Source: a virus
DNA length: 64,000 nucleotides
Strand: one strand, 5' to 3'
IMG/VR virus record: IMGVR_UViG_3300029305_006397
Position 1 is the first letter of the stretch; every line of letters starts with the position of its first letter. The translations under genes were made by a program, and so were the position numbers. The notes below the pieces were generated by a model. It saw only the letters and a list, made by a program, of their open reading frames with translations. It was not told where the DNA came from and ran no database searches. This document shows, one piece after another, positions 8,610 to 59,498 of this stretch.

Positions 8610-9012
8610 CTTCTTTATTTTTTTTAGGCAGAGGCATCAAGTTTAGATAATGACGCTTGCCTTTAATTTTCACATATCGACCTTTACGATTGAAATAACA
8701 TTCCTTCATTACGGTAAGATCAGGGTAATACCCATCAACATATCGAAGCGATACAAATCCACCAGCATCGGATACAACCTGAATATTCTCAGCCAAATCA
8801 AAGGGAGTTTTTCGAATATAAGGTCTTTGGCATTTGCCACAAAACATATTGCTTTCTAAATTGGTGTATACAATATCATGGACGCCAAGACTTTTACCGC
8901 AGCATTCGCAGAATAATTCTGCACATCTGTATGGCATTTTATCAGGAGATTCAGCCCATTTGCGACCGCTTTTAATTAGTTTATCTTCCTGTTTTTGCCA
9001 GAGCTTCCCCAT
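8602..9012 (-). CDS. hypothetical zinc-finger protein
   Basis: CECCGK...CGKC; start at ATG 9012 with AAGGAGGAA SD. Confidence 0.55.
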   Translation of the reverse strand: MGKLWQKQEDKLIKSGRKWAESPDKMPYRCAELFCECCGKSLGVHDIVYTNLESNMFCGKCQRPYIRKTPFDLAENIQVVSDAGGFVSLRYVDGYYPDLTVMKECYFNRKGRYVKIKGKRHYLNLMPLPKKNKEGE

Positions 9013-9181
9013 ATTCTTCCTCCTTTGCAGCTGCATCTTGAAGTATCCTTTGAGCATCAAGCATATCGCGCAGATAATCTAAATTATCCATGTCAGGATC
9101 GCTGCGAATATCATGAAGTAAATTTATTTCAATGAACAATGCAAGATTTCTGCATTGGCTTTTTGAGAGTTCAACCTTCAT
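8981..9181 (-). CDS. hypothetical protein
   Basis: tiled minus-strand ORF, start uncertain. Confidence 0.45.
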   Translation of the reverse strand: MKVELSKSQCRNLALFIEINLLHDIRSDPDMDNLDYLRDMLDAQRILQDAAAKEEEYGEALAKTGR

Positions 9182-12119: not shown

Positions 12120-13310
12120 TTATATGTCTCCTTCGTAAGTAAGAATTTTTATTGCTTTATCGATCTGGTTTAAAACAAATTGTAAATCTTCATGGGTGAT
12201 GTTATCTGGTAATGTGAAACGAATGGTTCTTGCCGCATCCTGATCTGAAAGCCCAATGGCCTTAAGTACATGGGAAGGCTTAATGGATTGGGAATTGCAT
12301 GCCGATCCGGCAGAAGCATAAATACCAGCTGATTCCAATAAAAACAAAAGGGATTCGGAATAAACACCATCAGGAAAAGTGACGTTAATATTGTTTGGCA
12401 ACCTTGTATCATATGAAGCACCATTTAATCTGCAGCCGCGCTTTTCCAAAAGATTGATCATATCTTTTTGTTTTTCACCAAGCTTTGATCTTATTAAAGG
12501 GTTGATACATTCGACCGCTTCTGCAAAAGCCATAATGCCAGGAACATTTTCTGTTCCACCACGCATAGAATCCATTTGGGAACCAAACACCAAAGGTTGA
12601 ATCTGGACGCCATCACGAATATAGAGAAAACCTATTCCTTTTGGAGCACCAATTTTATGACCGGATGCCGACATCATATCGATTCCAAGCTTTTGAACAT
12701 CAATTTCGATATGGCCGAATGCCTGGACAGCATCGGTATGAAAAAGTGCATTCGCATTATAAGAATGAATCAATGTGGCAAGAAACCCGATATGTTGGAT
12801 AGTACCAATTTCATTATTAGCGAACTGAATAGATACCAGAGGATCACGGCATTTATACTTTTCCATGGCTTCACGAAGCGCATTTGTATCGACAAATCCA
12901 TATTGATCAACTGGAAGAATTTCAATGTCCGCAATATTATCCCATGCTTTTACACATTCCAGAATGGATTTATGCTCAATAGCCGTCGTAATAATTACAG
13001 GATAGGTATTTCTATGTGGATCAGACAGACATTTATGGATATAACCCTGGATTGCCCAACAATTAGATTCACTGCCACCGGATGTGAAATAGATTTCGTT
13101 AAGCGACCTAGAATTAATATAATCTGAAGTTACCTTTCTGGCCCTTTCCACTTCACCACGAATCCAATGCGCAGGTTTATAATGAGCAGAAGGATTATGC
13201 CATTTGATATTGATATAATGACTGATAATATCTGCAATCATATTCCGTTTTTCAGGATCAGACATTGAAGTGGCGGCTTCATCAAGATAGATTTCGTGCA
13301 TGAGATTCAC
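12120..13310 (-). CDS. cysteine desulfurase (NifS/IscS class, PLP-dependent)
   Basis: PLP-lysine motif SASGHKIGAPKGIGFLY and catalytic-Cys loop SAGSACNS. Confidence 0.85.
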   Translation of the reverse strand: MNLMHEIYLDEAATSMSDPEKRNMIADIISHYINIKWHNPSAHYKPAHWIRGEVERARKVTSDYINSRSLNEIYFTSGGSESNCWAIQGYIHKCLSDPHRNTYPVIITTAIEHKSILECVKAWDNIADIEILPVDQYGFVDTNALREAMEKYKCRDPLVSIQFANNEIGTIQHIGFLATLIHSYNANALFHTDAVQAFGHIEIDVQKLGIDMMSASGHKIGAPKGIGFLYIRDGVQIQPLVFGSQMDSMRGGTENVPGIMAFAEAVECINPLIRSKLGEKQKDMINLLEKRGCRLNGASYDTRLPNNINVTFPDGVYSESLLFLLESAGIYASAGSACNSQSIKPSHVLKAIGLSDQDAARTIRFTLPDNITHEDLQFVLNQIDKAIKILTYEGDI

Positions 13311-18774: not shown

Positions 18775-18849
18775 TGGCTGGGGTAGTTGGATTCGAACCA
18801 ACGATGTGGGAGTCAAAGTCCCATGCCTTAGCCGCTTGGCTATACCCCA
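18775..18849 (-). tRNA. tRNA-Gln(TTG)
   Basis: cloverleaf; anticodon loop CUUUGAC; GGTTCGAATCC T-arm; CCA encoded. Confidence 0.85.
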
Positions 18850-19234
18850 ACAGCAGAGAAGTTTAAACCTTGTGTTTTTTTAATGCGGAGCTAACGGGAC
18901 ATTGTTTCAGCTCAGGCATTTCTTCGTAACACATTACTCCTACTTCCAAAGGATGCACTTTAAGACCGTATGTCTTGCTGCTGCGCAGAGGTAGCATTTC
19001 CTCCGCTTGAACACTTTCGCAGTTCCCGGCACTAGACACTTTCGTAGTCTCCAACGCCATCGTTTGTATGCTCAATTTACTTTTACCCAGTAGCGAACTG
19101 GAGAAGGCTGAACCACCTGGCTATAAATACAACAATGGTCTAAGCGTTAGGCAGACGGTCAAGAATCTGCCCCACGGAATCGTACCGTGCCACCTGCGGT
19201 AAATAAGACGCAGGATCGAACCTCGCTTTTAGGA

Positions 19235-19576
19235 TTAATTTTGTATGGGTTTTGCAATTCTAAGTGCAATTGCAATACAGTAAATGCATGCCCATACATA
19301 ATCAATTATGCCTTTCAAGCTCTCAAAAAATGTAGGCTTACGTTCCATCATACGACTAAGCTCGATCAAACGAACACGACGTTCACGGTCGCGAGTTTCC
19401 TCTACAATATGATGGATATCTGTAAGGTCTCGAAGCTGACGATTAAATTTCAAATTAAGCTCTTCAATTTCATTTTGGTGCTCAATTCTGGATTTCTCCA
19501 TTTCATGAGCATGGATTTCGTTGAGACGCCTGGTTTCATTAATTACCAAATTGATATCGCTGAGAGTGAGATTCAT
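19235..19576 (-). CDS. hypothetical coiled-coil protein with C-terminal TM helix
   Basis: AGGAGG SD; sits inside tRNA island. Confidence 0.55.
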   Translation of the reverse strand: MNLTLSDINLVINETRRLNEIHAHEMEKSRIEHQNEIEELNLKFNRQLRDLTDIHHIVEETRDRERRVRLIELSRMMERKPTFFESLKGIIDYVWACIYCIAIALRIAKPIQN

Positions 19577-19620
19577 AGAAGCCTCCTATTGTTGTTCGTC
19601 GATATCTTTGAAAATAAAGA

Positions 19621-19697
19621 TGGTACTCCGGGAGGGACTTGAACCCCCGACTACAGACTTAGAAGGACTGTGCTCTTTCCAACTGAGCTACCGGAGC
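19621..19697 (-). tRNA. tRNA-Arg(TCT)
   Basis: 77 nt cloverleaf; anticodon loop CUUCUAA; CCA encoded. Confidence 0.85.
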
Positions 19698-19701
19698 ATA
19701 T

Positions 19702-19777
19702 TGGCAGGGAAGAAGAGATTCGAACTCTTATCTACATCGGTTTTGGAGACCGGAGTTTTGCATTAAACTACTTCCCT
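19702..19777 (-). tRNA. tRNA-Trp(CCA)
   Basis: 76 nt cloverleaf; anticodon loop CUCCAAA; CCA encoded. Confidence 0.8.
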
Positions 19778-19948
19778 ATTTATTATTATTGAGCCATAGG
19801 ACTTTCACCTATGGGAGCAAGGGTTAGGTTTCGTGTTTGCAACCACTTTCTAACGGTCTATTTCTAATTACTAATCTTGCCGACCAAGCATCTACAATTT
19901 TACCTTGCTTTTTCATATTTCGTACTTTTAAGAGATTTTCTTTTTGCT

Positions 19949-20036
19949 CGGCATCAACAGGACTTGAACCTGAACCCTCCGGCCAGCACTATCCAGCCAG
20001 CATGCTCTCCACCTACACCAGACACCTAATCCCTGC
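19949..20036 (-). other. tRNA-like element with aberrant anticodon arm
   Basis: acceptor GGTGTCT/TGATGCC, D-arm GTGT..GCAT, T-arm CAGGTTCAAGTCCTG; central hairpin has a 6- or 8-nt loop, no assignable anticodon. Confidence 0.35.
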
Positions 20037-20127
20037 CACACAAACCATCGGCTGTACCTTCCGTTATAGGCTTGTTTGTACGTTGTGGCATACTCCATAT
20101 GGCTTTGTACTCACCACTCAAAAATAA

Positions 20128-20391
20128 TCACGTTTGCTTTTTGCGAAGCGCCTGAACCTTGCGATTAAAAGCATGAATCTCGCTTTTTGTAAGGTTGGGC
20201 TTGATTTCTACGATTGAAAGATTCCATGAATAAAGGATGTCTTTGCTAGTGCCAGATAACTTGTTTGCATTGACTACAAAACGAGCCAATTGATCAAGCG
20301 TTTCAAACCTACGAACAAAAGCTCCGCGACAATGACGATTAAAAGATTTAAACTTCAATCCTGACCTTGCAAATGCAACTTCATAACGCAT
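20128..20391 (-). CDS. small basic protein inside tRNA island
   Basis: 87 aa, K/R rich; AAAGAGGT SD 5 nt before ATG. Confidence 0.4.
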   Translation of the reverse strand: MRYEVAFARSGLKFKSFNRHCRGAFVRRFETLDQLARFVVNANKLSGTSKDILYSWNLSIVEIKPNLTKSEIHAFNRKVQALRKKQT

Positions 20392-20672
20392 AAAGTACCT
20401 CTTTCATAACCGGGTTACGATCTACACGGTAGACGGCCTGTCCCCTACCCCTTTAGCCTTGGACTGTTTGGCTTCCCTCGTTGGTTGATGGTCGCGTCCA
20501 ACTCTTTCAACCTCTTTCACTGCCCCTCGAACGTATTACCAGTGCCAACACCCACTTAGCGTTAAGCAGAATTACATCGACGTTGTTGGCTGCGCGAATG
20601 ACTGCGCGTACATAAGCTTCATTAAATGGCCGTCTGCTGCGGCATCAACTTAAGAAAAGAAAGAAAGGAGTT

Positions 20673-20743
20673 TGCTTCGAGACGGAATCGAACCGCCGAC
20701 AAGAGCCATTCCAGCTTTTACTCTTCCCCTGAGTTACCGAAGC
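20673..20743 (-). tRNA. atypical tRNA, Phe(GAA)-like with G33
   Basis: good acceptor, D and T arms; anticodon loop UGGAAUG (G at position 33), A-C mismatch in stem; no CCA. Confidence 0.45.
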
Positions 20744-20746
20744 ATG

Positions 20747-20822
20747 TGGAGCTGGCGAAGGGACTTGAACCCGCAACCTGCTGATTACAAATCAGCTGCT
20801 CTGCCAATTGAGCTACGCCAGC
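20747..20822 (-). tRNA. tRNA-Thr(TGT)
   Basis: 76 nt cloverleaf; anticodon loop UUUGUAA; CCA encoded. Confidence 0.85.
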
Positions 20823-20831
20823 CCGATATAT

Positions 20832-20954
20832 TTACTGGGTTTCCAGTAAACGAATACGACGTTTGAGTTTATTGATAATGTTAACATTGACAACGGGATC
20901 GCGCATCTGCAGGATGTGCATGCGAATGGAGAGAGATTCGATAGAGTTTTTCAT
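20832..20954 (-). CDS. possible 40-aa protein between tRNAs
   Basis: own translation MKNSIESLSIRMHILQMRDP...; GAAAGAGGTAC SD as for 20128..20391. Confidence 0.3.
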   Translation of the reverse strand: MKNSIESLSIRMHILQMRDPVVNVNIINKLKRRIRLLETQ

Positions 20955-20984
20955 GGATTTGTACCTCTTTCATTGAATTTTAGA

Positions 20985-21061
20985 TGGAGCACCAGACGGG
21001 ACTCGAACCCGCAAACCTCCGGCTTGGAAGGCCAGCATTCTAACCATTGAACTACTGGTGC
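20985..21061 (-). tRNA. tRNA-Gly(TCC)
   Basis: 77 nt cloverleaf; anticodon loop CUUCCAA; CCA encoded. Confidence 0.85.
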
Positions 21062-21316
21062 ATATACCCTAATCTGTTATCGTACAGATTGGTAGAAACG
21101 CCGGATTTGCACCGGGACTCGCGAGTGTCTTTGGGCGCAGCCAGGGATCGAACCCGGAAATCAAGACTTGGCTTCCTGCATTTTGCCTCTTAAATTACTG
21201 AGCCATAAAACTCCCGGTGGGTTCTCAGGCCCACATTGCCCGTTTACCGAAGCAGTGACGGCAGTCCTTCAGGTGATAAGCTTAAAGTCACCCTTGCGAA
21301 TTTGTACGACAGGAGT

Positions 21317-21402
21317 TGGTGAATACAATTGGATTCGAACCAATGCTCGACGACTGAGCCAAAGGCATGGGCCGTCCGTGCTAACCGCTACACCATATAT
21401 TC
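21317..21402 (-). tRNA. atypical 86-nt tRNA-like gene, expanded anticodon arm, isotype unassigned
   Basis: acceptor GAATATA/TGTATTC, D-arm GTGTAGCGGTTAGCAC, T-arm ATTGGTTCGAATCCAAT, ACCA end; about 13 extra nt in the anticodon arm. Confidence 0.45.
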
Positions 21403-21550
21403 ATGCATCCGACTAAGCAGTAGTCGGCACTGTGAAACACGCCGCGTGACACCTCGTCTGCGTCTGCGTCTGCGATTTCAATCAGTGATATCGCCACTGA
21501 TCCTCCCCTTGTCATCGGGAAAACTATCTTGACCAAGCGATATTTGGGAC

Positions 21551-21627
21551 TGGTGGGGGCCACAGGACTCGAACCTGTGACCGATCGGTTATGAGCCGAC
21601 TGCTCTGACCAACTGCGCTAGACCCCC
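21551..21627 (-). tRNA. tRNA-Met or Ile2 (CAT)
   Basis: 77 nt cloverleaf; anticodon loop CUCAUAA; CCA encoded. Confidence 0.85.
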
Positions 21628-21878
21628 ATATGTAATGCCCCTGGTTGTATTAAATACATATGCATATGGATAGCTACGTCCCGCGAAGGAGTATTCGCGT
21701 GTATGCCTGACTTAAATCACGGACTCCAATTGTATTACTATGTGACGCATACTTTCGTTTTTATCCGCTATCTGGACGGGGCAGGTTAAGCGATAACCTA
21801 TGCCTTTCGACAACCCAGCCTCTAATAAGAGGCTGACGCTCATGGCCTAATGTCCTGTTTCAACTCGCCATGACGAGC

Positions 21879-21942
21879 AATCACCTGCAAGAATCGAACC
21901 TGCCTGGAAGTCAAGCTTCCTTTACTGCCGCCCAGAAGTGAT
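21879..21942 (-). other. truncated tRNA-like element lacking a D-arm
   Basis: acceptor ATCACTT/AGGTGAT, T-arm GCAGGTTCGATTCTTGC, hairpin GGAAG-CUUGA-CUUCC. Confidence 0.3.
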
Positions 21943-22006
21943 TAAGATGGATTGTTTGACTTTAATTTGATAAGCGGAGGCCAAACAACCAAATTTCTCT
22001 CACGAT

Positions 22007-22092
<86 letters not shown>

Positions 22093-22170
22093 AGATTGGT
22101 GGGCCTTAACGTCGGCCCAAACGACAGATGGGTTTATGCGCTGCGTAACCTCTTTTGCTCTTAACCGCGA

Positions 22171-22253
22171 TGGTGGGGATGGTGGGACTTGAACCCACAC
22201 GGTCTAGCCGTCGCATTTTGAGTGCGATGCGTCTGCCATTCCGCCACAACCCC
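22171..22253 (-). tRNA. tRNA-Leu(CAA)
   Basis: 83 nt type II tRNA; anticodon loop CUCAAAA; CCA encoded. Confidence 0.8.
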
Positions 22254-22366
22254 GCCTAGTATGGCATGCCGTTCGGCTTACGACGGCCATAACGCCGGAT
22301 TTAGGAAATCACCCAAGAAAGGAGGTGTACATATGAAACCGTATCTCACCCGGAATCAGATGTAAG

Positions 22367-22442
22367 TGGTGAAAGTGGCGGGATTCGAACCCGCGACTCA
22401 CAGATTAAAAGTCTGTTACTCTACCGACTGAGTTACACTTCC
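22367..22442 (-). tRNA. tRNA-Lys(TTT)
   Basis: 76 nt cloverleaf; anticodon loop CUUUUAA; CCA encoded. Confidence 0.85.
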
Positions 22443-22450: not shown

Positions 22451-22469
22451 TTTGCACATAATGTTTATT
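22451..22469 (-). promoter_or_regulatory. conserved phage motif copy (AATAAACATTATGTGCAAA on minus strand)
   Basis: 9 nt upstream of the tRNA-Lys 5' end; one of 10 copies. Confidence 0.5.
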
Positions 22470-22509
22470 GTTTATCAGATCAATCCGAATTATCGTTTTC
22501 ATCTTTATT

Positions 22510-22528
22510 TTTGCATATAATGTTTATA
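22510..22528 (-). promoter_or_regulatory. conserved phage motif copy
   Basis: TATAAACATTATATGCAAA on minus strand, upstream of tRNA island. Confidence 0.45.
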
Positions 22529-22619
22529 AGCAATAAAAGAATGATTTACTGCCTTTTCAAATGATCGCCATTTGAATGCCTTCGGATTGATTGATAATAG
22601 ACAGTGATTCATTTTATCG

Positions 22620-22638
22620 TTTGCACTTAATGTTTATT
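22620..22638 (-). promoter_or_regulatory. conserved phage motif copy
   Basis: AATAAACATTAAGTGCAAA on minus strand, upstream of tRNA island. Confidence 0.45.
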
Positions 22639-22729
22639 AAAACATCTTAAATCGCCAACGACTGTAATAATACTACCACAAGATTCATAGCTTGTCAACC
22701 CCTTTTTCAAACTTTTTTGAAAAAAATTT

Positions 22730-23905
22730 TCAAGCTTCTGCTTTAAAATTATAGATGGGTTTAAAACGATCTACGATATCTACGGTTGGGCCAATGCAAT
22801 TAATAATTTCCTGATAATCCTTGTAAACAAAAGGAGCTTCATCCAAGGTTGATTCATTAATGCATGTGGAATATATGCCATTCATAGTTTCGGCATATTC
22901 TTCTACGGTAAATATCTTCTTTGCCTGTGCGCGAGAATACAGGCGACCAGCTCCATGAGGAGCAGAACAATTCCATTCGGTATTGCCCTTTCCTCTGCAG
23001 ATCAAAAGACCATCACGCATATTAAGAGGAATTACAAGAAACTGACCTTGCTGCGCAGAGATTGCGCCTTTGCGCAAAATCATTTCTTTCACATTGATAT
23101 AATTATGTACACTATCAATGCAATAATCGATTTCACCACCCATAGCAGATACGATTGTATGCAACATTATCCATCTATTCTGTTCAGCAAATTCCTGTAG
23201 AATTGCAACGTCATGAAGATAATCATCCATGTCCTGTCCGGTAAGATAACAAAGATCGGGATCAATTGCGATATGATGTTCAGACAGCCATTGCTGGCGC
23301 ATAACAGGTTCAATAAACTGCAGTTGCTCCATGCGCAAATTATAGTTGTATTTCTTTATGCGATTTACGGCGAGGTTCTGGTAGTATTGAGCCACTTTCA
23401 GGCCGATATTGCGACTGCCTGAATGAACAGCGATATATCCATTTTCATACGCTTCGATGAAATGGTTCCCACCTCCAAGAGTTCCAAGGGTACACTTTGC
23501 CCTTTCCTGGGTCGCTTTATCCAATTTGTCCCAGCACCGCAATTCTTCGAAATCTCGTTCCCATACCTTCTCAGTCGAATGTACATCCATACCAAACGGA
23601 ATACTAGATCGGATAGCGGCGTCCAATTCATCAAGGCGAGAATCAAAATCAATATTGGTTTGTACAAGTGATACACCACAACCGATATCTACGCCAACCA
23701 AATTCGGGCATACCTTATCCGTGATATGCATAGTAGTACCGATTACACAGCCAGCTCCGGCATGGGCATCCGGCATGATTCGAATATGTGCGTCCTTACC
23801 CAAAGGAGAATCCGCCATCTTTTTAATTTGATCGATAGCTTGATCCTCAATTGTCTTAGCATAAATGACGACATCATCACCATGGGTAGACTTATATATT
23901 TTCAC
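22730..23905 (-). CDS. rtcB: RtcB RNA 3'-phosphate/2',3'-cyclic phosphate ligase
   Basis: PDAHAGAG, GGGNHFIE, HSGSRNIG, HNY and HGAGR motifs; GTG start with AAGGTGA SD. Confidence 0.9.
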   Translation of the reverse strand: MKIYKSTHGDDVVIYAKTIEDQAIDQIKKMADSPLGKDAHIRIMPDAHAGAGCVIGTTMHITDKVCPNLVGVDIGCGVSLVQTNIDFDSRLDELDAAIRSSIPFGMDVHSTEKVWERDFEELRCWDKLDKATQERAKCTLGTLGGGNHFIEAYENGYIAVHSGSRNIGLKVAQYYQNLAVNRIKKYNYNLRMEQLQFIEPVMRQQWLSEHHIAIDPDLCYLTGQDMDDYLHDVAILQEFAEQNRWIMLHTIVSAMGGEIDYCIDSVHNYINVKEMILRKGAISAQQGQFLVIPLNMRDGLLICRGKGNTEWNCSAPHGAGRLYSRAQAKKIFTVEEYAETMNGIYSTCINESTLDEAPFVYKDYQEIINCIGPTVDIVDRFKPIYNFKAEA

Positions 23906-30582: not shown

Positions 30583-30918
30583 TTACTTTACCTCCGTCCA
30601 GCCATTGCGCTGGATAATTCTGCGCATATTTTCAGCGCCTACAGGGTTCATGCTATGGATTCTGATGGGGTAATTGCGGCCAGTTTCTTCAAGCCAATCA
30701 AGTAACTTAATATAGTCGCCGCCATACTGGGCATAGTCGCCTGCGTCATGATCAAGGTCAATGAGTTCAATAGGTTCAATGCTTTCAATATCACCAAATT
30801 CTTTGATTTCATTTTCTCTAATCTGAATCTCTTTAATTGCTCTCCATACGCTATGGCACCAAACATAACCCTCCGGCGCAGGACGAACGTCATCCACCCA
30901 AAGCTTCATTTCATCCAC
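30583..30918 (-). CDS. cyclic-phosphate-processing receiver (cREC)-like domain protein
   Basis: LWVDDVRPAPEGYVW...DLDHDAGD...IRIHSMNPVGAENM matches my recollection of this phage receiver-like family. Confidence 0.5.
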   Translation of the reverse strand: MDEMKLWVDDVRPAPEGYVWCHSVWRAIKEIQIRENEIKEFGDIESIEPIELIDLDHDAGDYAQYGGDYIKLLDWLEETGRNYPIRIHSMNPVGAENMRRIIQRNGWTEVK

Positions 30919-47022: not shown

Positions 47023-47089
47023 TCCACGACACAGCCGGAATTTTCCGACTATGTTTCGACCGGGCATCACCCGGTTCTCGTCAGGTGGA
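47023..47089 (-). ncRNA. hammerhead ribozyme, type I (HH-4)
   Basis: UCCAC-CUGACGA-G(A)ACCGGG-UGAUG-CCCGGUC-GAAA-CAUAGUCGG-AAAAUU-CCGGCUGUGUC/GUGGA; predicted cleavage between 47028 and 47027. Confidence 0.85.
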
Positions 47090-47092
47090 TTG

Positions 47093-47254
47093 TTACTTGA
47101 GTTCCCATTTTTCCATCCACGGCTCTCCTTGCCGATCATACTTATCTGCGTACATTCGATCAAGGGCTTCCTGCGCTTTCTTTTCCGATGAATAGATTTC
47201 TCTGATTCCTTCGTCACCATAGCAGCCGGACATGATAACGTAAACGTACTTCAT
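47093..47254 (-). CDS. 53-aa protein
   Basis: own translation MKYVYVIMSGCYGDEGIREIYSSEKKAQ...; GGAGGT SD; stop directly abuts HH-4. Confidence 0.45.
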   Translation of the reverse strand: MKYVYVIMSGCYGDEGIREIYSSEKKAQEALDRMYADKYDRQGEPWMEKWELK

Positions 47255-47263
47255 ACATACCTC

Positions 47264-47479
47264 CTAACCATCATTCCATGCGTAATCGTACCAGAGGGAA
47301 ATCACATCGTTTTCCGGCTCAAAAGGCGTATCATCAAACGACAGGGCATTCAGACCTTCATCCTTAAGCCGCTGCATTGCCATCGTTTCCAGCTCCTCGT
47401 TGGATTTTCCGACTGCATCTTCGTCGTCAATGTATACCTTATAGAAACGCTTTACCTCAGCCATGATAGCTACTGCCAT
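47264..47479 (-). CDS. hypothetical acidic protein
   Basis: conserved leader GGAAAGATAGGAGGAAAC upstream. Confidence 0.55.
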   Translation of the reverse strand: MAVAIMAEVKRFYKVYIDDEDAVGKSNEELETMAMQRLKDEGLNALSFDDTPFEPENDVISLWYDYAWNDG

Positions 47480-47575
47480 AAGTGTTTCCTCCTATCTTTC
47501 CTTATGCGTTTGGCTTTAGGGGCTTGTGACCTTATGCCTTGCCGCATTAACAGGGCTTATGCCCTGCCACTCTGC

Positions 47576-47761
47576 TTAATCTCGATTGGAAAGCTCCGTG
47601 TGATAGATATGCACACTCTGAAGGCGTCTGCTTCCAAATTTCCGTCGAAATTCCTCTTTCGCATCTTTCATGTTTGCCTTGCTACCGTTTCGATGATCGC
47701 TTACATACTCAAATTCTCCGTAATCGTGACCATCATCATAAAGCGCAATGTAGTTTTTCAT
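47576..47761 (-). CDS. hypothetical protein
   Basis: tiled minus-strand ORF, no motif. Confidence 0.55.
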   Translation of the reverse strand: MKNYIALYDDGHDYGEFEYVSDHRNGSKANMKDAKEEFRRKFGSRRLQSVHIYHTELSNRD

Positions 47762-47772
47762 GCCGCCTCCTG

Positions 47773-47970
47773 TTAATCCATAGTGTAGTCATTGATTCTA
47801 CAAAATTCCGACCAGTCTCCGCCAAGTCGCCGGATAAGCTCCCTTTCGATCTTGACGCGCTCTTGCGGATAACGCTTGTTCTTCGGGTAGAGGATTTCCT
47901 GCGCAACAATGATTCCATAGGTGCTTACCAAATCTTCATGCGAATAATCCATGTACTTGTTTTTCCGCAT
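47773..47970 (-). CDS. hypothetical protein
   Basis: tiled minus-strand ORF, no motif. Confidence 0.55.
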   Translation of the reverse strand: MRKNKYMDYSHEDLVSTYGIIVAQEILYPKNKRYPQERVKIERELIRRLGGDWSEFCRINDYTMD

Positions 47971-47973
47971 GGT

Positions 47974-48219
47974 TTAACCCTCCATCATGCAGCCCATTTC
48001 AAGCTGTACACGGTGATTGAAATCTTCCATCGCAGCCTTAAGGTCATTCAGGAAGTAATGACCGTGACAATAGGATTTTCCGTTCATACAAAACCATGTA
48101 ATCCACATGATTCCCTGACTTGTTTCAGTTTTTGCCAGAACAACTTCGCCCTCAATGACAGGCTCCGCATGGATAATCTCACAATTTTCCGAGTAGTTTT
48201 TGTTGTAGCGCCTTTCCAT
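47974..48219 (-). CDS. hypothetical protein
   Basis: conserved leader GGAAAAGATAGGAGGAAAC upstream. Confidence 0.55.
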   Translation of the reverse strand: MERRYNKNYSENCEIIHAEPVIEGEVVLAKTETSQGIMWITWFCMNGKSYCHGHYFLNDLKAAMEDFNHRVQLEMGCMMEG

Positions 48220-48274
48220 GTATGTTTCCTCCTATCTTTTCCTTATGGTTTCCATGGATATTTCCATGGGGTTT

Positions 48275-48342
48275 CCCACGACGCTCTCAGGATTTTCCAT
48301 CAAGCGTTTCGGTTGCTAACCGGGCAGCCATCATCAGGTGGG
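48275..48342 (-). ncRNA. hammerhead ribozyme, type I (HH-3)
   Basis: CCCAC-CUGAUGA-U-stem II-GAAA-CGCU..AGCGUC/GUGGG; predicted cleavage between 48280 and 48279; stem II pairing less regular. Confidence 0.7.
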
Positions 48343-48343
48343 G

Positions 48344-48547
48344 TTAAAAAACGAATCCGGCATAAACCATCTTGTTTCCGTCCAGCATCCTCCATGCGTT
48401 AGCATCGTCCCATGCCGTACAACAGTAACGTTTTTCCGACCTGTCATATTCGCCGCGGATATAGACCCGATTTGCAGACTCTTTCAACTTGAAAAATTCT
48501 CCATGCTTCAGGTCTTTCAGCTTGTACATTCCTGCATCTCTTTCCAT
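48344..48547 (-). CDS. hypothetical protein
   Basis: stop TAA abuts HH-3 stem I. Confidence 0.55.
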   Translation of the reverse strand: MERDAGMYKLKDLKHGEFFKLKESANRVYIRGEYDRSEKRYCCTAWDDANAWRMLDGNKMVYAGFVF

Positions 48548-48548
48548 G

Positions 48549-48743
48549 TTAGGCTCCCTTCTTAATCCGCTTTACTTCGATATGATCGTAGCCTTTATCC
48601 GGGTGAAGAAAATTCCGAATACCATAGCTTCGTGCTTCCTGCTCATTAGTTGCTTCGATCTTGTGATATTCCAAGGCCATGCCAGATTTTCCGACACCAA
48701 TTCGATAGAGATATTTCCTTGCCATTGTGCTTCCTCCGTTCAT
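48549..48743 (-). CDS. hypothetical protein
   Basis: ATGA overlap with upstream micro-ORF. Confidence 0.55.
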   Translation of the reverse strand: MNGGSTMARKYLYRIGVGKSGMALEYHKIEATNEQEARSYGIRNFLHPDKGYDHIEVKRIKKGA

Positions 48744-48913
48744 TTACCGATTGCCTCGGCGTAGTATTCGTCGAAATTTCCGAAAACTTCCAGATACACC
48801 ATGCCACCATTGCCCCGATAAGGCCGGATATTTTTCATGATGAATCGATATTCCGTGAACATCAATGCAAGCACACAAAGGGCAATACATGCTCCAATCG
48901 CCAGCTTTTTCAT
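48740..48913 (-). CDS. 57-aa membrane micro-protein
   Basis: own translation MKKLAIGACIALCVLALMFTEYRF...; conserved leader upstream. Confidence 0.45.
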   Translation of the reverse strand: MKKLAIGACIALCVLALMFTEYRFIMKNIRPYRGNGGMVYLEVFGNFDEYYAEAIGK

Positions 48914-48949
48914 GATTTTCCTCCTATCTTTTCCATGTGGTTTTGACTT

Positions 48950-49015
48950 CCCACGACAGGCCAGCTCAAGGCCAGCCTGTTTCGGCTCGTTGTCAACTCG
49001 CCATCGTCAGGTGGG
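48950..49015 (-). ncRNA. hammerhead ribozyme, type I (HH-2)
   Basis: CCCAC-CUGACGA-U-GGC(GA)GUU-GAC-AAC(GA)GCC-GAAA-CAGGCUGGCC..GGCCUGUC/GUGGG; predicted cleavage between 48955 and 48954. Confidence 0.75.
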
Positions 49016-49020
49016 TATGC

Positions 49021-49482
49021 TTACCATTCCTCCAATTCTTCCTCCAGATCGGCGATTTCTTCCTCCAGATCATCGGCATCCGACTGGTAATTGCTTCTCC
49101 AGATTGCCATTCTCAGGCTTTCGATTTCTTCCTCGTCCAGCTCATTCATTCCGGCAAGCTCACGATTGGAATTGATTTCGTCGATTTGTTCCTCGACTTC
49201 TTCTTCGTAACTTTCCTTGAGTTCTTCCAGCTCGTACTGTTTTTCTTCCAGTTCGGCGCGGATAACTTTCTCGGAACGGATTCCAACCCATTCATACACG
49301 GATTCCGGCTCAAACCAAAGCAGATCATTTAGACCAGTTTCGGTCATTCCATCCGGGTACAAATCCTCCAGAACAGCCTCCAGCTGCGCACATTTTCCGG
49401 CGTTGCGTACACGATCAAGGGTATCGACAGCTCCAGACCATGCCTCGAAAGTTTCCAAATCAAGCTCGTATGTGATTTTCAT
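49021..49482 (-). CDS. hypothetical highly acidic protein
   Basis: C-terminal half very E/D rich; stop 5 nt before HH-2 stem I. Confidence 0.6.
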   Translation of the reverse strand: MKITYELDLETFEAWSGAVDTLDRVRNAGKCAQLEAVLEDLYPDGMTETGLNDLLWFEPESVYEWVGIRSEKVIRAELEEKQYELEELKESYEEEVEEQIDEINSNRELAGMNELDEEEIESLRMAIWRSNYQSDADDLEEEIADLEEELEEW

Positions 49483-49589
49483 TGTAAAATTCCCCTTCCT
49501 ATCTTTCCAAATGATTGACAGGAAGGGGCAAACTATGATATATTTCTGTATAGGAAGGGCGGAAGGAAATTCCCTCCACCCCCATGCGG

Positions 49590-49673
49590 TTAGATTTCGT
49601 CCGGGTTATCCGTGGCGCGAATAATCCCATCAGACCACATCCAGCCGTATTTAGTCCGATACAGGGCTTTCAT
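49590..49673 (-). CDS. possible 27-aa micro-protein
   Basis: own translation MKALYRTKYGWMWSDGIIRATDNPDEI; leader AAAGATAGGAAGGAGG upstream. Confidence 0.3.
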   Translation of the reverse strand: MKALYRTKYGWMWSDGIIRATDNPDEI

Positions 49674-49699
49674 GGCGGTTGTCCTCCTTCCTATCTTTT

Positions 49700-49734
49700 T
49701 ATAAAAAGCGGTCTTGTGTTGGTAGCACAAGGCC
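49700..49734 (-). terminator. possible intrinsic terminator or attenuator
   Basis: GGCCUUGUG-CUACCAA-CACAAGACC then GCUUUUUAU on minus strand. Confidence 0.4.
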
Positions 49735-49958
49735 GTTTTTATCTTTTAAAGCCGTTTTTTCTACGATACGGCAAAACGCTTGACCCATGCTATATGGGAA
49801 TGAATCGGGGTTCAAGGGATTGCCCCGGTCGCCTCCAGCCGTGTTCTTACATGCCGCTGGACACAGGTAGCCTGCATAATCATCTCATTCTCCGGCTACA
49901 GAGTTTTGCGCGGTTTCGATAGACGCACATTTATTGGCGGTTGCTATCGGGAATGGTT

Positions 49959-50020
49959 AACCCAGACCAGCCCATGTGGGCGTGGTTTCGTCGCAATTTT
50001 CAGCGACTCGTCAGTGGGTT
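49959..50020 (-). ncRNA. hammerhead ribozyme, type I (HH-1)
   Basis: AACCCA-CUGACGA-GUCGC-UGAAAAUU-GCGAC-GAAA-CCA(C)GCCC-ACAU-GGGCUGGUC/UGGGUU; predicted cleavage between 49965 and 49964; overlaps stop of 50011..50208. Confidence 0.85.
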
Positions 50021-50208
50021 TCAGGGTATTCCATTGCTATGGCTCTGACGGCTTCAATATCCGTCAACATTCCTCTTTCATATACGCGCAAAATATTTTC
50101 TATGCGTGTTTTTCTTAATTCTTTGATAGACGTTAACATTAACGTATTTTCTGCATCTGTCTGAAGCATATCTTGCGCAAACTCATGCACATAGCGTTTT
50201 CTTCTCAT
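50011..50208 (-). CDS. hypothetical protein
   Basis: last codons and UGA lie in HH-1 stem I and core. Confidence 0.55.
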   Translation of the reverse strand: MRRKRYVHEFAQDMLQTDAENTLMLTSIKELRKTRIENILRVYERGMLTDIEAVRAIAMEYPETH

Positions 50209-50230
50209 GTTTATACCTTCCCTTCTCTTT

Positions 50231-50298
50231 CCATACCCACGCCCCGGCAGGGCGTGACGCTCACGGCTTAAATGGCTTTTTATAGTCGCCGTGACGAC
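50231..50298 (-). ncRNA. pistol ribozyme (P-2)
   Basis: GUCG-UCACGGC-GAC-UAUAAAAAG-CCAU-UUAA-GCCGUGA-GCG-UCACGCCC-UGCCG-GGGCGUGG-GU-AUGG; loop/GCCGUGA pseudoknot and CCAU/AUGG helix; predicted G/U cleavage between 50236 and 50235. Confidence 0.75.
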
Positions 50299-50610
50299 TC
50301 AGACAATTATGCAGCGTTTGAACGGATTTTCGCAGGGGTCGCAACCGAAACCGAAATTTTCTCCGTATATATCGATATACTGAAGTCCAGCGAATTTGCC
50401 GTTCTGAATGGTTTTTAACTCCATTGTAGCGCGGCGCATAGCCTGTTTTGCCTGTTTAATGGTTACGTCGTCGATATTGTAGAATCTGTTTAGCTTGTTT
50501 TGAATTTTATTCAAGAAATTCATTGCAAGGTCATTTGTAACATTCTTTTTATCGGACTCCATGAAACAGTCAAACCCGTATGCACGAAGATAAAAACCCT
50601 GTTTTTTCAT
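50299..50610 (-). CDS. hypothetical protein
   Basis: stop abuts pistol P-2. Confidence 0.55.
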   Translation of the reverse strand: MKKQGFYLRAYGFDCFMESDKKNVTNDLAMNFLNKIQNKLNRFYNIDDVTIKQAKQAMRRATMELKTIQNGKFAGLQYIDIYGENFGFGCDPCENPFKRCIIV

Positions 50611-50633
50611 TGTATAACCCTCCCTATCTATTT

Positions 50634-50698
50634 TTGAACCCGCCCCAAACGGGGCGACGCTTTGGGCCTAATCAACTATTTAAAGTCGCCCAAACGAC
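50634..50698 (-). ncRNA. pistol ribozyme (P-1)
   Basis: GUCG-UUUGGGC-GAC-UUUAAAUAG-UUGA-UUAG-GCCCAAA-GCG-UCGCCCC-GUUU-GGGGCGG-GU-UCAA, near-identical in layout to the published pistol consensus; predicted G/U cleavage between 50639 and 50638. Confidence 0.85.
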
Positions 50699-50955
50699 TA
50701 AACGCGCATTACATTGTCAAGATAAATGCGCATTGCACCCTTACGAATATATGCCCGACCTGCCGTCGAATAGTGGACTTTATGACGATGAAAACCCACA
50801 TATCCTTCAGGGTTAACCCATGCCGCAATATAATCGCATTCGAATTTATCGCCGTCGTCGGGTTCCCAAAGTGCAACGCCGAAACAGTTGGAAAAATGGC
50901 AAACGCCAACCGGGGCAATATTAGAATAACGCTTGTAAAGTGCTACATTTTTCAT
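50698..50955 (-). CDS. hypothetical protein
   Basis: stop codon G is the first nt of pistol P-1. Confidence 0.55.
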   Translation of the reverse strand: MKNVALYKRYSNIAPVGVCHFSNCFGVALWEPDDGDKFECDYIAAWVNPEGYVGFHRHKVHYSTAGRAYIRKGAMRIYLDNVMRV

Positions 50956-50989
50956 TGTGTTTTACCTTCCCTCTTTTTTTTAGGTTATT

Positions 50990-51044
50990 CACCCGACGCC
51001 CGGCAGGGCGTTTCGTCTTAATTTTCAAAGACTCTTCAGGGGCG
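50990..51044 (-). ncRNA. hammerhead ribozyme, type I (HH-6)
   Basis: CGCCC-CUGAAGA-GUCUU-UGAAAAUU-AAGAC-GAAA-CGCCC-UGCC-GGGCGUC/GGGUG; predicted cleavage between 50995 and 50994. Confidence 0.9.
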
Positions 51045-54589: not shown

Positions 54590-54648
54590 TCTAAAATTCT
54601 CAGACTAAGTAAGGATGAATGAAATGGGTAAATAAAGAAGGTGTTTGT

Positions 54649-57534
54649 ATGCCTCTGGATAAGCAAATTCAAATTATCTCGACTGATACTGCGGGATTCT
54701 ACAGCAACCATGAGGCAAGGTTGCATTTGAAAAATCATAAACTTCGAAGCGAAAGAAAAATACTTAAAAAAGGCGGAGTCGTTAAAAGAGCAAATGGAGA
54801 CAAACGGATCGTTATTGGTTTAGATGAAATTGAAAATAAGCTTGCCGTATTTGGTATTTACTCTACTGACATAGAAGACATCATAAACGAACGCTTTAAT
54901 TTTGACGACTATACCTTAGAGGATATAGGCGAAATTAAGCATTTGATTTCCGATTACAACTTGAAAAAGAAGCTAATTGAAATCAAGAACGCTGCAATCA
55001 GCGAAAGCAAAGAGCAGCTTTTGAAGCTCTTGGCGAATAAAGTCCAGGAGAACGTAAGCTCAAATGGAAGGCATCATACGAGGTACTTGAGAGAGAATAG
55101 CGTTGTAAACAGTAATATCATTTCGGTATTTGATTCGTCCTTTACGAGAATGATCGGAGCAAAGGAAAATGAATTATGCGAAGATTTTATGGTGATTCAG
55201 GTATTTTACTTTGATGTATTGAAAGATATTCTGTATCATGGGTATACATACAAGGGCGAGAAATATATTTATTTTACTTCATCTGCCGGACAGATCAGGA
55301 CAAAAAAAGCGGTTTTTGTAAAAGAAAAAATCTGGAACGAGCATGAGCGTACAATTATGTGTGGATTAACGCTTGACGAGATAAATCGCAAGGGAGGTAA
55401 CAATCCCAATAAGCATCTGGCTTATATGGCTTTGAGCAATTCAGCCACTGATTTGTGGCCTGAGTTCGATATTGATAAAGCCATTGTAATCGATGATTTT
55501 GAAACCAATGTATTTGGAACCTACGATCTCGTGGATGATGCGGACTATACTATTACCAGGGTTTCAGATTTTGTTCCTATATCTCATACAGATGGCGCTG
55601 GTATGATACTCCCCTGTGCCTTTGGAAAGACCCAGAAAAATAAAATGGTTCGATTACCGTGGATTAAAGGATTGCTTGGCGTTTTTGATTTTAGGAAGTT
55701 TATAATTGATCAAGGAGCTTCGCCAGTAATTCGAGATATTTACGGAAAAGAACACAATTTGATTTCCGAAGATATCCAGGTAGTTTTCACCAAATCTCAG
55801 CATAAAATGTGGAAATACTATAACTCCTGGAACGAATATAAAGCGGCTTATAAGAAATATGGTTGTACTGCCGGATATACCAATGAAGAAGAGTTGAATA
55901 TTCCTAATGCGTCCATCAACTATCAAATGCTTCAAACACTGACGGATATTACTCCGGAAGAGATTTTAAAAATTGCAAATAAATCTATTGGCTGTTTGGA
56001 AAATATGACGAGCAGTATAGATAACATTCGAGCAGCATTTGGTGGAGCAAATTATAATCAGGATAAGAGTAGTTTGAACAAAGCATTAGATTTATACCCT
56101 GATCTATTAAACGATGATTGGATTAAGAGAACCCTCCGGGCAATTCGCGATAGCTTGATCAAGGATTATAAAGCTGGAAAATTGAGAGTGCGAGGCAAAT
56201 ACACATTCTTACTCCCTGATTTTTATGCTGCATGCCAATATTGGTTCCTTGGGATCGAGGAACCGGAAGGGCTTTTGCAAGATGGAGAGGTATTTTGTTG
56301 GTTATTTCCTGAAAGCGAAAAATTAGATTGCTTGCGAAGTCCTCATTTATATCGCGAACATCCTATTCGCAGGAATGTCGCATGGATAGGTTATAAAGAA
56401 AGACAAGCCAAGATCAGAGAATGGTTTGGTACAAACGCAGTTTATACGAGCTGCCATGATTTGATCAGCAAGATTTTGCAGTTTGATGTTGACGGAGATA
56501 AGAGTCTGGTGGTGGCAGATAAAACTATTATTGACGTTGCAGAGCGTAATATGCAAGGAATTGTTCCTTTGTATTATAACATGCGTAAAGCTTCTCCAGT
56601 GCAATTGAATAACGAAACGATCTATAACGGGTTGAACGCAGCATTTGTTGGCGGTAATATTGGAATATACAGCAATAATATTTCAAAGATTTGGAATAGT
56701 GAAGTTTTCATAAGCGGCAGCAATGAAGAACGTCGGGAAGCATTGGATATTATTAAGTTGCTTTGTATGGAAAATAATTTCGTTATCGATTATGCCAAAA
56801 CTCTGTATAAACCAGAACGCCCTAAGCACATTCACGAAAGAATCCTGGCCTTTACAAGAAATAAGCTTCCTCATTTTTTCGTTTATGCTAAAGACAAGCT
56901 GGACGATCAAGTGGAAAAACGCAATGGCAGTTTCGTAAATCAGTTGGATGATATAATACCTGTCCCCAGGTTCCATTTCAAAAAACTTGGTTTAGAAAAA
57001 GTTGAACATAGGTTTTTAATGCATGATTCAAATTGCACTGCAAGAGTAGCTTTTACAGATTCGGGTAAAATCATTTCAGAAGAGACAGACCCTTTAATTT
57101 TGGCGTACCATGCATTAAATAAAAAATATTTTTTGGACTTGGGAGAAGTATTACAGGTGAACTATTGCAATACTGAGTTGATATCAATATACGCTAAAAA
57201 TGGTGCTCTTGCCAAGAAGCAGCAAATGATCGAAGAAACGAAAAGCATTCTATCTGAATTTGGATATAATCAAAATCAAATTGTAGATATTTTAGTCGAT
57301 TATGTGTATGGGAAAAATAGGTCGAATGCAAAAGCACTGCTATGGCTTTGCTATGGCGATTCGATTTATAAGAATATGCTACAATATTTAATTCCGGATT
57401 TTAAGACGATACAGTGCGTAGATTGCGATGCATTATTTTCTGTTTCTGCTAAAAATCAATATGCATGCCGTTGTCCAGAATGTGCTAAAAAGCAGAAAAA
57501 GGCCGAAAGGCAATTAAAAAAGATGCTGTCTTAA
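54649..57534 (+). CDS. YonO-like single-subunit RNA polymerase (two-barrel, RdRP-related family)
   Basis: FTSSAGQIRTKKAVF, LRSPHLYREHP and metal-binding QFDVDGDKSLVV motifs in the order seen in YonO and cellular RdRP-type polymerases; start placed at ATG 54649 (track start 54619). Confidence 0.65.
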   Translation: MPLDKQIQIISTDTAGFYSNHEARLHLKNHKLRSERKILKKGGVVKRANGDKRIVIGLDEIENKLAVFGIYSTDIEDIINERFNFDDYTLEDIGEIKHLISDYNLKKKLIEIKNAAISESKEQLLKLLANKVQENVSSNGRHHTRYLRENSVVNSNIISVFDSSFTRMIGAKENELCEDFMVIQVFYFDVLKDILYHGYTYKGEKYIYFTSSAGQIRTKKAVFVKEKIWNEHERTIMCGLTLDEINRKGGNNPNKHLAYMALSNSATDLWPEFDIDKAIVIDDFETNVFGTYDLVDDADYTITRVSDFVPISHTDGAGMILPCAFGKTQKNKMVRLPWIKGLLGVFDFRKFIIDQGASPVIRDIYGKEHNLISEDIQVVFTKSQHKMWKYYNSWNEYKAAYKKYGCTAGYTNEEELNIPNASINYQMLQTLTDITPEEILKIANKSIGCLENMTSSIDNIRAAFGGANYNQDKSSLNKALDLYPDLLNDDWIKRTLRAIRDSLIKDYKAGKLRVRGKYTFLLPDFYAACQYWFLGIEEPEGLLQDGEVFCWLFPESEKLDCLRSPHLYREHPIRRNVAWIGYKERQAKIREWFGTNAVYTSCHDLISKILQFDVDGDKSLVVADKTIIDVAERNMQGIVPLYYNMRKASPVQLNNETIYNGLNAAFVGGNIGIYSNNISKIWNSEVFISGSNEERREALDIIKLLCMENNFVIDYAKTLYKPERPKHIHERILAFTRNKLPHFFVYAKDKLDDQVEKRNGSFVNQLDDIIPVPRFHFKKLGLEKVEHRFLMHDSNCTARVAFTDSGKIISEETDPLILAYHALNKKYFLDLGEVLQVNYCNTELISIYAKNGALAKKQQMIEETKSILSEFGYNQNQIVDILVDYVYGKNRSNAKALLWLCYGDSIYKNMLQYLIPDFKTIQCVDCDALFSVSAKNQYACRCPECAKKQKKAERQLKKMLS

Positions 57535-58300: not shown

Positions 58301-58305
58301 CGTAT

Positions 58306-58383: not shown

Positions 58384-58386
58384 CAT

Positions 58387-59496: not shown

Positions 59497-59498
59497 AT

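Follow-up and report, generated by a model that had tools for sequence, protein, structure and literature searches.

We analysed a 64,000-nt stretch of viral DNA (IMG/VR record IMGVR_UViG_3300029305_006397; hereafter the window) that encodes a predicted RNA ligase of the RtcB family together with nine predicted self-cleaving ribozymes. The ligase gene, rtcB (22730..23905, minus strand), heads an island of tRNA genes, a small cREC protein is encoded upstream of it, and eight of the ribozymes form an array at 47.0-51.0 kb. The initial annotation of this DNA had stated that RtcB joins 2',3'-cyclic phosphate or 3'-phosphate ends to 5'-OH ends, which are the products of hammerhead and pistol cleavage as well as of anticodon nucleases, and had proposed that gene cassettes released by flanking ribozymes could be circularised or re-ligated by the phage's own ligase. 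The end chemistry holds; the proposal built on it is weighed below.

The RtcB ligase, its tRNA island and cREC

The open reading frame (ORF) at 22730..23905 encodes a 391-aa protein that we predict, from Pfam, PHROG and motif alignment, to be a 3'-phosphate/5'-OH RNA ligase, an activity that in this family depends on GTP and Mn2+. It matches PF01139 over profile positions 1-425 of 426 (E 3.8e-63; 214.6 bits against a cut-off of 27) and PHROG 1075, labelled 'tRNA splicing ligase', with an E-value of 3e-127. The motifs MPDAH, VDIGCGV, GGGNHF, VHSGSR and PHGAGR align to the P. horikoshii RtcB in the PDB, and an HNY motif is seen by direct reading of the ORF. The metal-binding and GMP-accepting residues of the P. 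horikoshii enzyme are D65, D95, C98, N202, H203, H234, H329 and H404; in the motif comparison with the PDB RtcB, the metal-ligand and GMP-histidine motifs are all retained in the phage protein. In its full-length match, its motifs and its size, which is like that of bacterial RtcB, it resembles the family as represented by E. coli, P. horikoshii and PHROG 1075, and it looks like an active ligase. The assignment of this ORF to RtcB in the initial annotation is thereby borne out.

An identical RtcB protein is encoded on four ENA metagenome contigs. The closest viral-metagenome relatives are only 62-67% identical, the RtcB proteins of Bacillus, Staphylococcus and gut phages are 44-48% identical, and human faecal samples are the source of the nearest GenBank relatives. 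RtcB is present in 689 of 50,697 phage records, mostly from Mycobacterium, Bacillus and Listeria phages. When the rtcB region was compared with phage genomes by megablast, tRNA fragments alone matched. No RtcA or RtcR partner of the phage RtcB was seen, and archease was not searched for.

The tRNA island (18775..22442, minus strand) begins 288 nt past the rtcB stop codon, on the same strand, and comprises 12 genes according to ARAGORN and 11 tRNA hits according to Rfam, in agreement with the 11-tRNA island that had been described beside rtcB. Starting with tRNA-Lys(UUU), it holds tRNA-Leu(CAA), tRNA-Leu(UAA), tRNA-Met, one odd tRNA, and tRNAs for Trp, Gly, Thr, Phe, Trp, Arg(UCU) and Gln(UUG). 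Both tRNA-Trp genes carry the anticodon CCA, T-arm-like fragments occur in the spacers (19950-20010, minus strand), and several further structured spacers are unexplained. One 86-nt tRNA call (21317-21402, minus strand) is irregular, having a two-base 'anticodon'.

Two other structured RNAs lie among these tRNAs. A pistol ribozyme (21809..21878, minus strand; Rfam RF02679, 61.6 bits, E 8.5e-9; 75 bits with our own covariance model) is found between tRNA-Leu(UAA) and tRNA-Met, about 850 nt from rtcB, with predicted cleavage at 21814|21813; its 3' product begins UUGUC-GAAA-GGCA, possibly forming a 4-bp hairpin. A RAGATH-36 RNA (19031..19192, minus strand; RF03104, 73.2 bits against a gathering score of 70) lies between tRNA-Arg and tRNA-Gln. 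In a second, plus-strand tRNA island (58223-60177), a drum RNA occupies 59675-59782 (plus strand), such that RAGATH-36 and drum are both orphan structured RNAs embedded among tRNAs; this second island also contains a tRNA-His call with the anticodon AUG (59498-59571, plus strand). A 445-aa metallophosphoesterase encoded beside the second island was considered as a Pnkp-like healing enzyme and rejected, being an SbcD/Mre11-type exonuclease.

Between the rtcB stop codon and tRNA-Lys we identified a candidate sigma-70-like promoter (22670..22698, minus strand), with TTGACA and TAGTAT separated by 17 nt, a TG element and 10 of 12 matches in a consensus scan; it is a candidate by consensus match alone. 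The same interval contains three copies of the 15-nt motif AACATTAWGTGCAAA (22451..22634, minus strand). The motif occurs nine times in the window against 0.06 expected, at positions 2391, 18656, 22451, 22510, 22620, 28977, 51396 and 53181 on the minus strand and at 53204 on the plus strand. One copy precedes the first gene of the ribozyme array unit by about 30 nt, and an inverted pair marks the divergent region at 53.2 kb. We regard the motif as a possible promoter or operator of the phage, perhaps serving the YonO-type polymerase described below.

The receiver-like domain noted earlier at 30583..30918 (minus strand) was confirmed as a stand-alone, 111-aa cREC protein by its match to PF20274 (E 6.7e-18; 65.6 bits against a cut-off of 27) and PHROG 1479. 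Acidic residues of the receiver type are present in the sequences WVDDVR (DD at 9-10) and DLDHD (53-57). Its gene shares the strand of rtcB and lies 6.7 kb upstream, with small unrelated genes and integrase-like genes in between. Members of the cREC family have been predicted to be cyclic-phosphate-processing enzymes of phage RNA-repair and NAD-ADP-ribose conflict systems (PMC7824862; PMC9503650). The window protein resembles the family as defined by Iyer, Anantharaman, Krishnan, Burroughs and Aravind (2021) in being stand-alone and phage-borne, in its acidic residues, and in having a ligase on the same strand; it differs in being unfused to Nudix and in its distance of 6.7 kb from the ligase, and the biochemistry of the family is itself predicted. 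Operonic linkage of cREC to RNA ligases has been reported (PMC7824862), and a genomic association of this kind is seen in the window and in two other RtcB loci (L004 and L131), where a Pfam-confirmed cREC lies 2.8-3 kb downstream of RtcB, which fits the published linkage. No histidine kinase was found among the 38 window proteins, a subset of the ORFs, that were scanned against Pfam.

A dense array of ribozymes between cistrons

The array consists of eight ribozymes in 4 kb, all on the minus strand: five hammerheads, two pistols and one twister, the pistol in the tRNA island being the ninth of the window. The hammerhead and pistol classes named in the initial annotation are thus present, and twister has to be added to them. 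From right to left, the elements are the type I hammerhead HH1 (50990..51044; cleavage 50995|50994, 39 nt upstream of a start codon); a pistol (50634..50699; Rfam 68.4 bits, E 2.5e-10; cleavage 50639|50638, 28 nt upstream of a start codon); a second pistol (50231..50299; 67.9 bits; cleavage 50236|50235, 27 nt upstream of a start codon); and the type I hammerheads HH2 (49959..50020; cleavage 49965|49964), HH3 (48950..49015; cleavage 48955|48954) and HH4 (48275..48342; cleavage 48280|48279). These are followed by a twister-P5 (47517..47576; RF02684, 50.9 bits, E 1.2e-7), whose cleavage site we take to be near 47549|47548, as placed from U|AAUGC in the consensus alignment and knowledge of the family, and by a fifth type I hammerhead, HH5 (47023..47089; cleavage 47028|47027). 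The three pistols of the window score 61.6-68.4 bits against a gathering score of 34.5 and have the conserved core and P1-P3; together with the twister-P5 their Rfam E-values range from 1e-7 to 3e-10.

The hammerheads were identified by sequence reading and a descriptor, which replaced the Rfam hammerhead models. At the gathering score these models matched nothing in the window, and in a relaxed Rfam scan (E<=10, 7.5 kb) they gave sub-threshold hits at HH1, which is a weak RAGATH-1-hammerhead match of 25.8 bits, and at HH2, missing the other three. All five nonetheless have complete CUGANGA...GAAA...UH cores and three helices of 2-11 bp, with stem I open, and are predicted from these features to self-cleave. 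The descriptor returned exactly these five in the window and nothing else; it was checked on the Rfam-confirmed type II hammerheads of Dulem virus 39, both of which it detects, and on reversed sequence, where a stricter version gave two hits in 2.9 Mb. HH3 and HH4 have an identical stem I and an extra U after A9 (CUGAYGA-U ahead of stem II), a feature shared with several hammerheads of related loci (L027, L020 and L052). Because the Rfam models score all five below threshold, this phage hammerhead subtype is effectively invisible to standard annotation.

Every array ribozyme is placed between a stop codon and a ribosome-binding site, and the upstream stop codons adjoin the ribozymes or overlap them. 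In six of the eight, the cleavage site precedes a start codon with a ribosome-binding site by 27-60 nt; the exceptions are the twister (about 69 nt) and HH2 (291 nt). Downstream of HH2 comes an ORF-free stretch of about 265 nt (49700-49964, minus strand), moderately structured (z = -2.15) and ending in a terminator-like hairpin and U-run; it is possibly a small RNA set free with a 5'-OH. The cassettes are different genes of 271-1010 nt. Ribozyme-bounded 'introns' that split an ORF were considered and rejected, as every cassette whose boundaries were read has its own start and stop codons. The cassette ends quoted in the initial annotation are exact hammerhead cleavage sites; the cassette given as 47028-48279, however, contains the twister and would be recut near 47549|47548.

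Type I hammerheads and pistols cleave only a few nucleotides from their own 3' ends, so that in each cassette the downstream ribozyme remains attached at the 3' end, while the 5' end carries no more of the upstream one than its closing strand (4-6 nt). Joining of such ends in the manner of retrozymes would have the 5' strand of a cassette pair with the free strand of its own 3' ribozyme, and we counted these pairs in register, the native stem I being of 4-6 pairs. The successive hammerhead intervals gave 0, 0, 5 and 5 pairs in the window, 0, 0, 4, 2 and 3 in L027, and 1 and 1 in both L020 and L052. Ends that would rebuild a hammerhead are found in 2 of 11 intervals (2 of 4 in the window and 0 of 7 in related loci); the two are HH3-HH4 and HH4-HH5, the latter interrupted by the twister. 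Reading of the pistol-bounded cassettes revealed no end complementarity. Among 16 related hammerheads, stem I covaries within each ribozyme (CCCAC/GUGGG, UCCAC/GUGGA, CCUAC/GUAGG and UCUCAC/GUGAGA), and selection therefore appears to act on self-cleavage, not on compatibility with neighbouring ribozymes.

Moreover, the first 4-5 nt of the 3' product in most cases pair with a copy of the 5' strand of stem I that lies a few nt downstream. A hairpin of at least 4 bp starting from nucleotide 1 of the 3' product is found for 13 of 16 distinct type I hammerheads, compared with 19% of shuffles (set drawn from the window, 47023-51044 on the minus strand; L027, 3125-6333; L020 and L052, about 1.4-5.7 kb; and L166, 42214-42270). 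The hairpin stems covary (GUGG/CCAC, GUAG/CUAC, GUGA/UCAC and GCGG/CCGC), their loops are often GNRA-like (e.g. GUGG-GAAU-CCAC, GUAG-GAAA-CUAC and GCGG-GAAG-CCGC), and they stand about 20-40 nt ahead of the ribosome-binding site. Stem-loops of this kind at the 5' end are known to slow 5'-end-dependent decay. We infer that, through refolding of the stem I strand, cleavage becomes irreversible, the 5'-OH is masked and the downstream mRNA acquires a decay-slowing 5' stem-loop. The order of ribozyme, hairpin and ribosome-binding site resembles that of the synthetic RiboJ insulator.

This layout fits what is expected of a device that divides a long transcript into mRNAs which are stable and translated independently of one another, and that needs no ligase. 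Here, individual genes or small groups of genes in a phage transcript are bordered by several ribozymes, as in the clustered prophage hammerheads for which Perreault et al. (2011) favoured processing into gene-length mRNAs (PMC3088659); compared with those clusters, the window array is denser and mixes three ribozyme classes. The conserved post-cleavage 5' hairpin, seen in the window and its relatives, is not mentioned in the passages of the literature that were consulted. The array shares less with retrozymes, Avsunviroidae and the Tornado system. The HH3-HH4 cassette has retrozyme-like identical stem I strands, but the window contains neither tandem identical units nor a rolling-circle template, its ribozymes are of mixed classes with helices that do not match, and its cassettes are coding mRNAs with ribosome-binding sites and self-hairpinned 5' ends. 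Ends that re-form a helix or ribozyme, as in a ribozyme-bounded circular RNA, are absent from the array save for HH3-HH4, and for HH4-HH5 if the twister stays uncut; nor does the array contain tandem repeats of one unit or products from which the ribozymes have been removed.

RtcB and ribozymes in other phage loci

A comparison set for the ribozymes was provided by the polymerase of the same window, a YonO-like single-subunit RNA polymerase of 971 aa (54619..57534, plus strand) of the two-barrel type, which matches Pfam PF05183 'RdRP' with an E-value of 4.3e-10 and is 43-44% identical to SPbeta yonO. Its presence identifies the virus as an SPbeta-like phage; transcription in the window runs leftward from about 53.5 kb. 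We compared 84 viral RtcB loci among the matches listed (RtcB 44-67% identical; ±10 kb; 1.44 Mb), which were dereplicated at 90% RtcB identity to 32 lineages, with 80 YonO polymerase loci (1.44 Mb). The survey covered pistol and hammerhead ribozymes, with twister, hatchet and twister-sister left out in most loci. Since MAFFT misaligned the structures of both hammerheads and pistols, the pistol covariance model was built from length-normalised copies; its E-values are rough.

Among the RtcB matches listed, tRNAs occur within 10 kb in 33 of the 84 loci and 13 of the 32 dereplicated lineages, and in 8 of these 13, as in the window, rtcB is followed on its own strand by the closest tRNA. The RtcB neighbours are otherwise heterogeneous across loci. 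An ADP-ribosylglycohydrolase gene lies directly downstream of RtcB in three gut-phage lineages (e.g. L103, 11441-12244) and an NAD synthase gene near RtcB in L006 (6492-7247), which hints that RtcB sits in NAD/ADP-ribose conflict islands.

Across the 84 RtcB loci, the covariance model made from the window pistols found none, and the hammerhead descriptor found no credible hammerhead, with a single weak and probably false hit. A single-sequence nhmmer search with the twister gave nothing beyond the window. Hammerhead-plus-pistol arrays are instead found around the YonO polymerase in six loci (L019, L020, L027, L028, L052 and L070), L027 alone having six hammerheads and two pistols. No RtcB lies within ±10 kb of these ribozyme-bearing YonO loci, and no contig is common to the two sets. 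In crude terms, a ribozyme occurs within 10 kb in about 2 of 35 RtcB lineages and in 6 of 80 YonO loci, a comparison that gives no sign of ribozyme enrichment near RtcB. The control YonO loci (1.44 Mb) likewise yielded no cREC.

The only other neighbourhood found to combine RtcB with ribozymes is that of Dulem virus 39 (PP511791.1, complete, 59.7 kb; L175/L176), where, in the region at 49.6-59.7 kb, four tRNAs precede RtcB and a RAGATH-27 and three type II hammerheads, one of them missed by Rfam, lie within about 9-10 kb. Conversely, ribozymes occur without the ligase: Bacillus phage PBC4 (complete, 80.6 kb) carries a pistol and Agathobaculum phage AB434P2 (44-kb record, described as a partial genome) a type I hammerhead, and neither has an RtcB or cREC homologue. 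A pistol is present in an intergenic spacer among small early genes in about 36 Bacillus phages (Bequatrovirus and PBC4-like). In Bacillus phage Chotacabras (L165), examined at 1-16 kb and 147-165 kb, a pistol (9001-9069; 74 bits) has an ATP-dependent RNA ligase gene (PF09414) 5 kb upstream.

Other features of the window and its relatives bear less directly on the ligase. More than 100 relatives of the YonO-like polymerase occur in viral contigs of 100-170 kb, and several appear to carry insertions, their matches spanning 3.2-4.2 kb compared with 2.9 kb here. A class V aminotransferase/cysteine-desulfurase-like gene (12120-13310, minus strand; PF00266, E 6e-57) could possibly supply tRNA thiolation; among its neighbours, Pfam was informative only for a LemA protein and a NUMOD4 motif.

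RNA repair and its alternatives

The comparison with about 90 other phages and the layout of the ribozymes point to ordinary RNA repair rather than to re-joining of ribozyme-cut RNAs. We hypothesize, with a probability of roughly 0.68, that RtcB, probably with cREC, serves to mend RNAs that metal-independent RNases of the host have cleaved, and that the ribozymes are an independent mRNA-processing device. RtcB and cREC would form an RNA-repair and counter-defence pair of an SPbeta-like phage of gut Firmicutes, in which RtcB would reseal tRNAs, and possibly other RNAs, after cleavage by enzymes that leave 2',3'-cyclic-phosphate and 5'-OH ends (e.g. anticodon nucleases, HEPN or toxin RNases, and CRISPR-associated RNases). 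The phage tRNAs would substitute for tRNAs beyond repair, and cREC, a predicted cyclic phosphodiesterase, may take part in this conflict by processing RNA>p or ADP-ribose>p ends. Separately and without a ligase, the nine ribozymes would cut long leftward transcripts between cistrons, so that the upstream mRNA would end in a folded ribozyme bearing a cyclic phosphate and the downstream one would begin with a short 5'-OH leader that is usually capped by a hairpin and lies just before the ribosome-binding site; if RtcB acted on such ends at all, it would do so incidentally.

The standard reading of tRNA repair, acknowledged in the initial annotation, is upheld by the position of rtcB at the head of the island and by the recurrence of an RNA ligase near phage tRNAs in 13 of 32 RtcB lineages. 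A ligase gene beside phage tRNAs is also what characterizes known phage tRNA repair, namely T4 Pnkp and Rnl1 acting against PrrC and the RtcB of jumbo phages (Iyer et al., 2021), and the ends left by metal-independent RNases have been described as substrates of such phage ligases (PMC7824862). Unlike T4, which uses a kinase/phosphatase and an ATP-dependent ligase, the window encodes a one-step RtcB, and this phage is SPbeta-like rather than T4-like or jumbo. Several points weigh against an RNA-repair role. Adjacency to tRNAs is frequent, not universal, since 19 of the 32 lineages lack a tRNA in the 10 kb on either side of RtcB; co-transcription of rtcB and the island is not required, because the island has its own promoter-like site; and cREC is not adjacent to rtcB. 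The co-occurrence of RtcB and ribozymes was, moreover, assessed within ±10 kb of the marker gene rather than genome-wide, and the nearby pistol together with Dulem virus 39 makes some association with ribozyme-rich regions possible.

The proposal of the initial annotation, that the phage RtcB joins the cyclic-phosphate and 5'-OH ends made by its own ribozymes, circularising cassettes or re-ligating neighbours as in retrozyme, viroid-like and 'Tornado' RNAs and thereby altering stability or translation, found no support, and we regard it as very unlikely. The end chemistry suits such joining, and E. coli RtcB is reported to ligate ribozyme products in vitro, with hammerhead-flanked retrozyme monomers circularised at 30-80% (PMC8782182; PMC7229834). 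Within the window, the HH3-to-HH4 cassette (48954 to 48280, 675 nt) begins with GUGGGA, which pairs over 5 bp in register with the free strand of its own 3' hammerhead, and HH4-to-HH5 pairs likewise provided that the twister stays uncut. In addition, rtcB has a pistol 850 nt away, and three hammerheads accompany RtcB in Dulem virus 39. Against this stand the 84 RtcB loci lacking a pistol or credible hammerhead, the absence of enrichment relative to YonO loci (about 2/35 versus 6/80), the ribozymes of PBC4 and AB434P2 in phages devoid of RtcB, the lack of cross-pairing in the other intervals (0-4 pairs) and of end complementarity in pistol-bounded cassettes, and 5' ends that are usually locked in their own hairpins. 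The ribozyme body stays on the 3' end of the cassette, and a templated junction would therefore rebuild an active ribozyme; a rebuilt hammerhead would cut again, as is reported of retained active ribozymes after ligation (PMC8782182). Perreault et al. (2011) raised and looked for circular or spliced products of prophage arrays and reported that none were detected (PMC3088659). Some incidental ligation in vivo is plausible, the HH3-HH4 cassette being the best candidate. A dedicated use of RtcB on the phage's own ribozyme products, such as a translatable or templating HH3-HH4 circle or a shift in the balance of cleaved and ligated forms, is exceedingly unlikely, even with a YonO-type polymerase of RdRP fold that makes it formally conceivable for a DNA phage to pass through a stage of viroid-like circular RNA. 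If true, it would be the first virus to pair protein-free RNA cutting with its own sealing enzyme for circular or spliced bacterial mRNAs, and it would provide a function for long-unexplained phage ribozyme clusters.

The structured RNAs within the tRNA island raise the related idea that RtcB matures the island itself, with the pistol and perhaps RAGATH-36 cutting a precursor whose pieces RtcB joins, as in archaeal and eukaryal splicing or split tRNAs. Both RNAs lie between tRNAs, all within 3.7 kb downstream of rtcB, and the irregular anticodon call at 21317-21402 and the unexplained structured spacers of the island could be read in this way. The tRNAs that flank the pistol are, however, complete and uninterrupted according to ARAGORN and Rfam, and therefore nothing needs joining; cleavage in a spacer only separates precursors. 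Separated tRNA precursors are trimmed by RNase P and RNase Z. The RtcB-linked tRNA clusters of the 84 loci contain no pistol or credible hammerhead, and that of Dulem virus 39 has none inside, its hammerheads being 3.3-5.6 kb off, which leaves this maturation scheme with scarcely any credence in our assessment. An unlikely reading of another kind would place cREC, and possibly the genomic company of RtcB, in NAD+/ADP-ribose or cyclic-nucleotide counter-defence rather than RNA healing, with cREC destroying cyclic ADP-ribose (cADPr) or 2',3'-cyclic nucleotide signals independently of RtcB. Iyer et al. proposed cADPr or 2',3'-cyclic nucleotides as cREC substrates and described Nudix fusions (PMC7824862; PMC9503650), unrelated genes fill the 6.7 kb between cREC and rtcB, and the ADP-ribosylglycohydrolase and NAD synthase genes near RtcB in other phages are in keeping with it. 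Conversely, cREC lies at most 3 kb from RtcB in two independent lineages and is absent from the 1.44 Mb of control loci, its operonic linkage to RNA ligases is on record (PMC7824862), and no Nudix, Macro, sirtuin or KptA domain was found among the 38 window proteins scanned.

The components of this locus are new members of known families, and RtcB with cREC is one more case of a known phage RNA-repair toolkit. A genome that encodes RtcB as well as ribozymes should not, on that ground, be assumed to contain a functional pair. More generally, the design of the array, with cleavage 27-60 nt before most start codons and 5' ends that are mostly hairpin-capped, is the more informative feature with regard to the function of ribozymes in phages.

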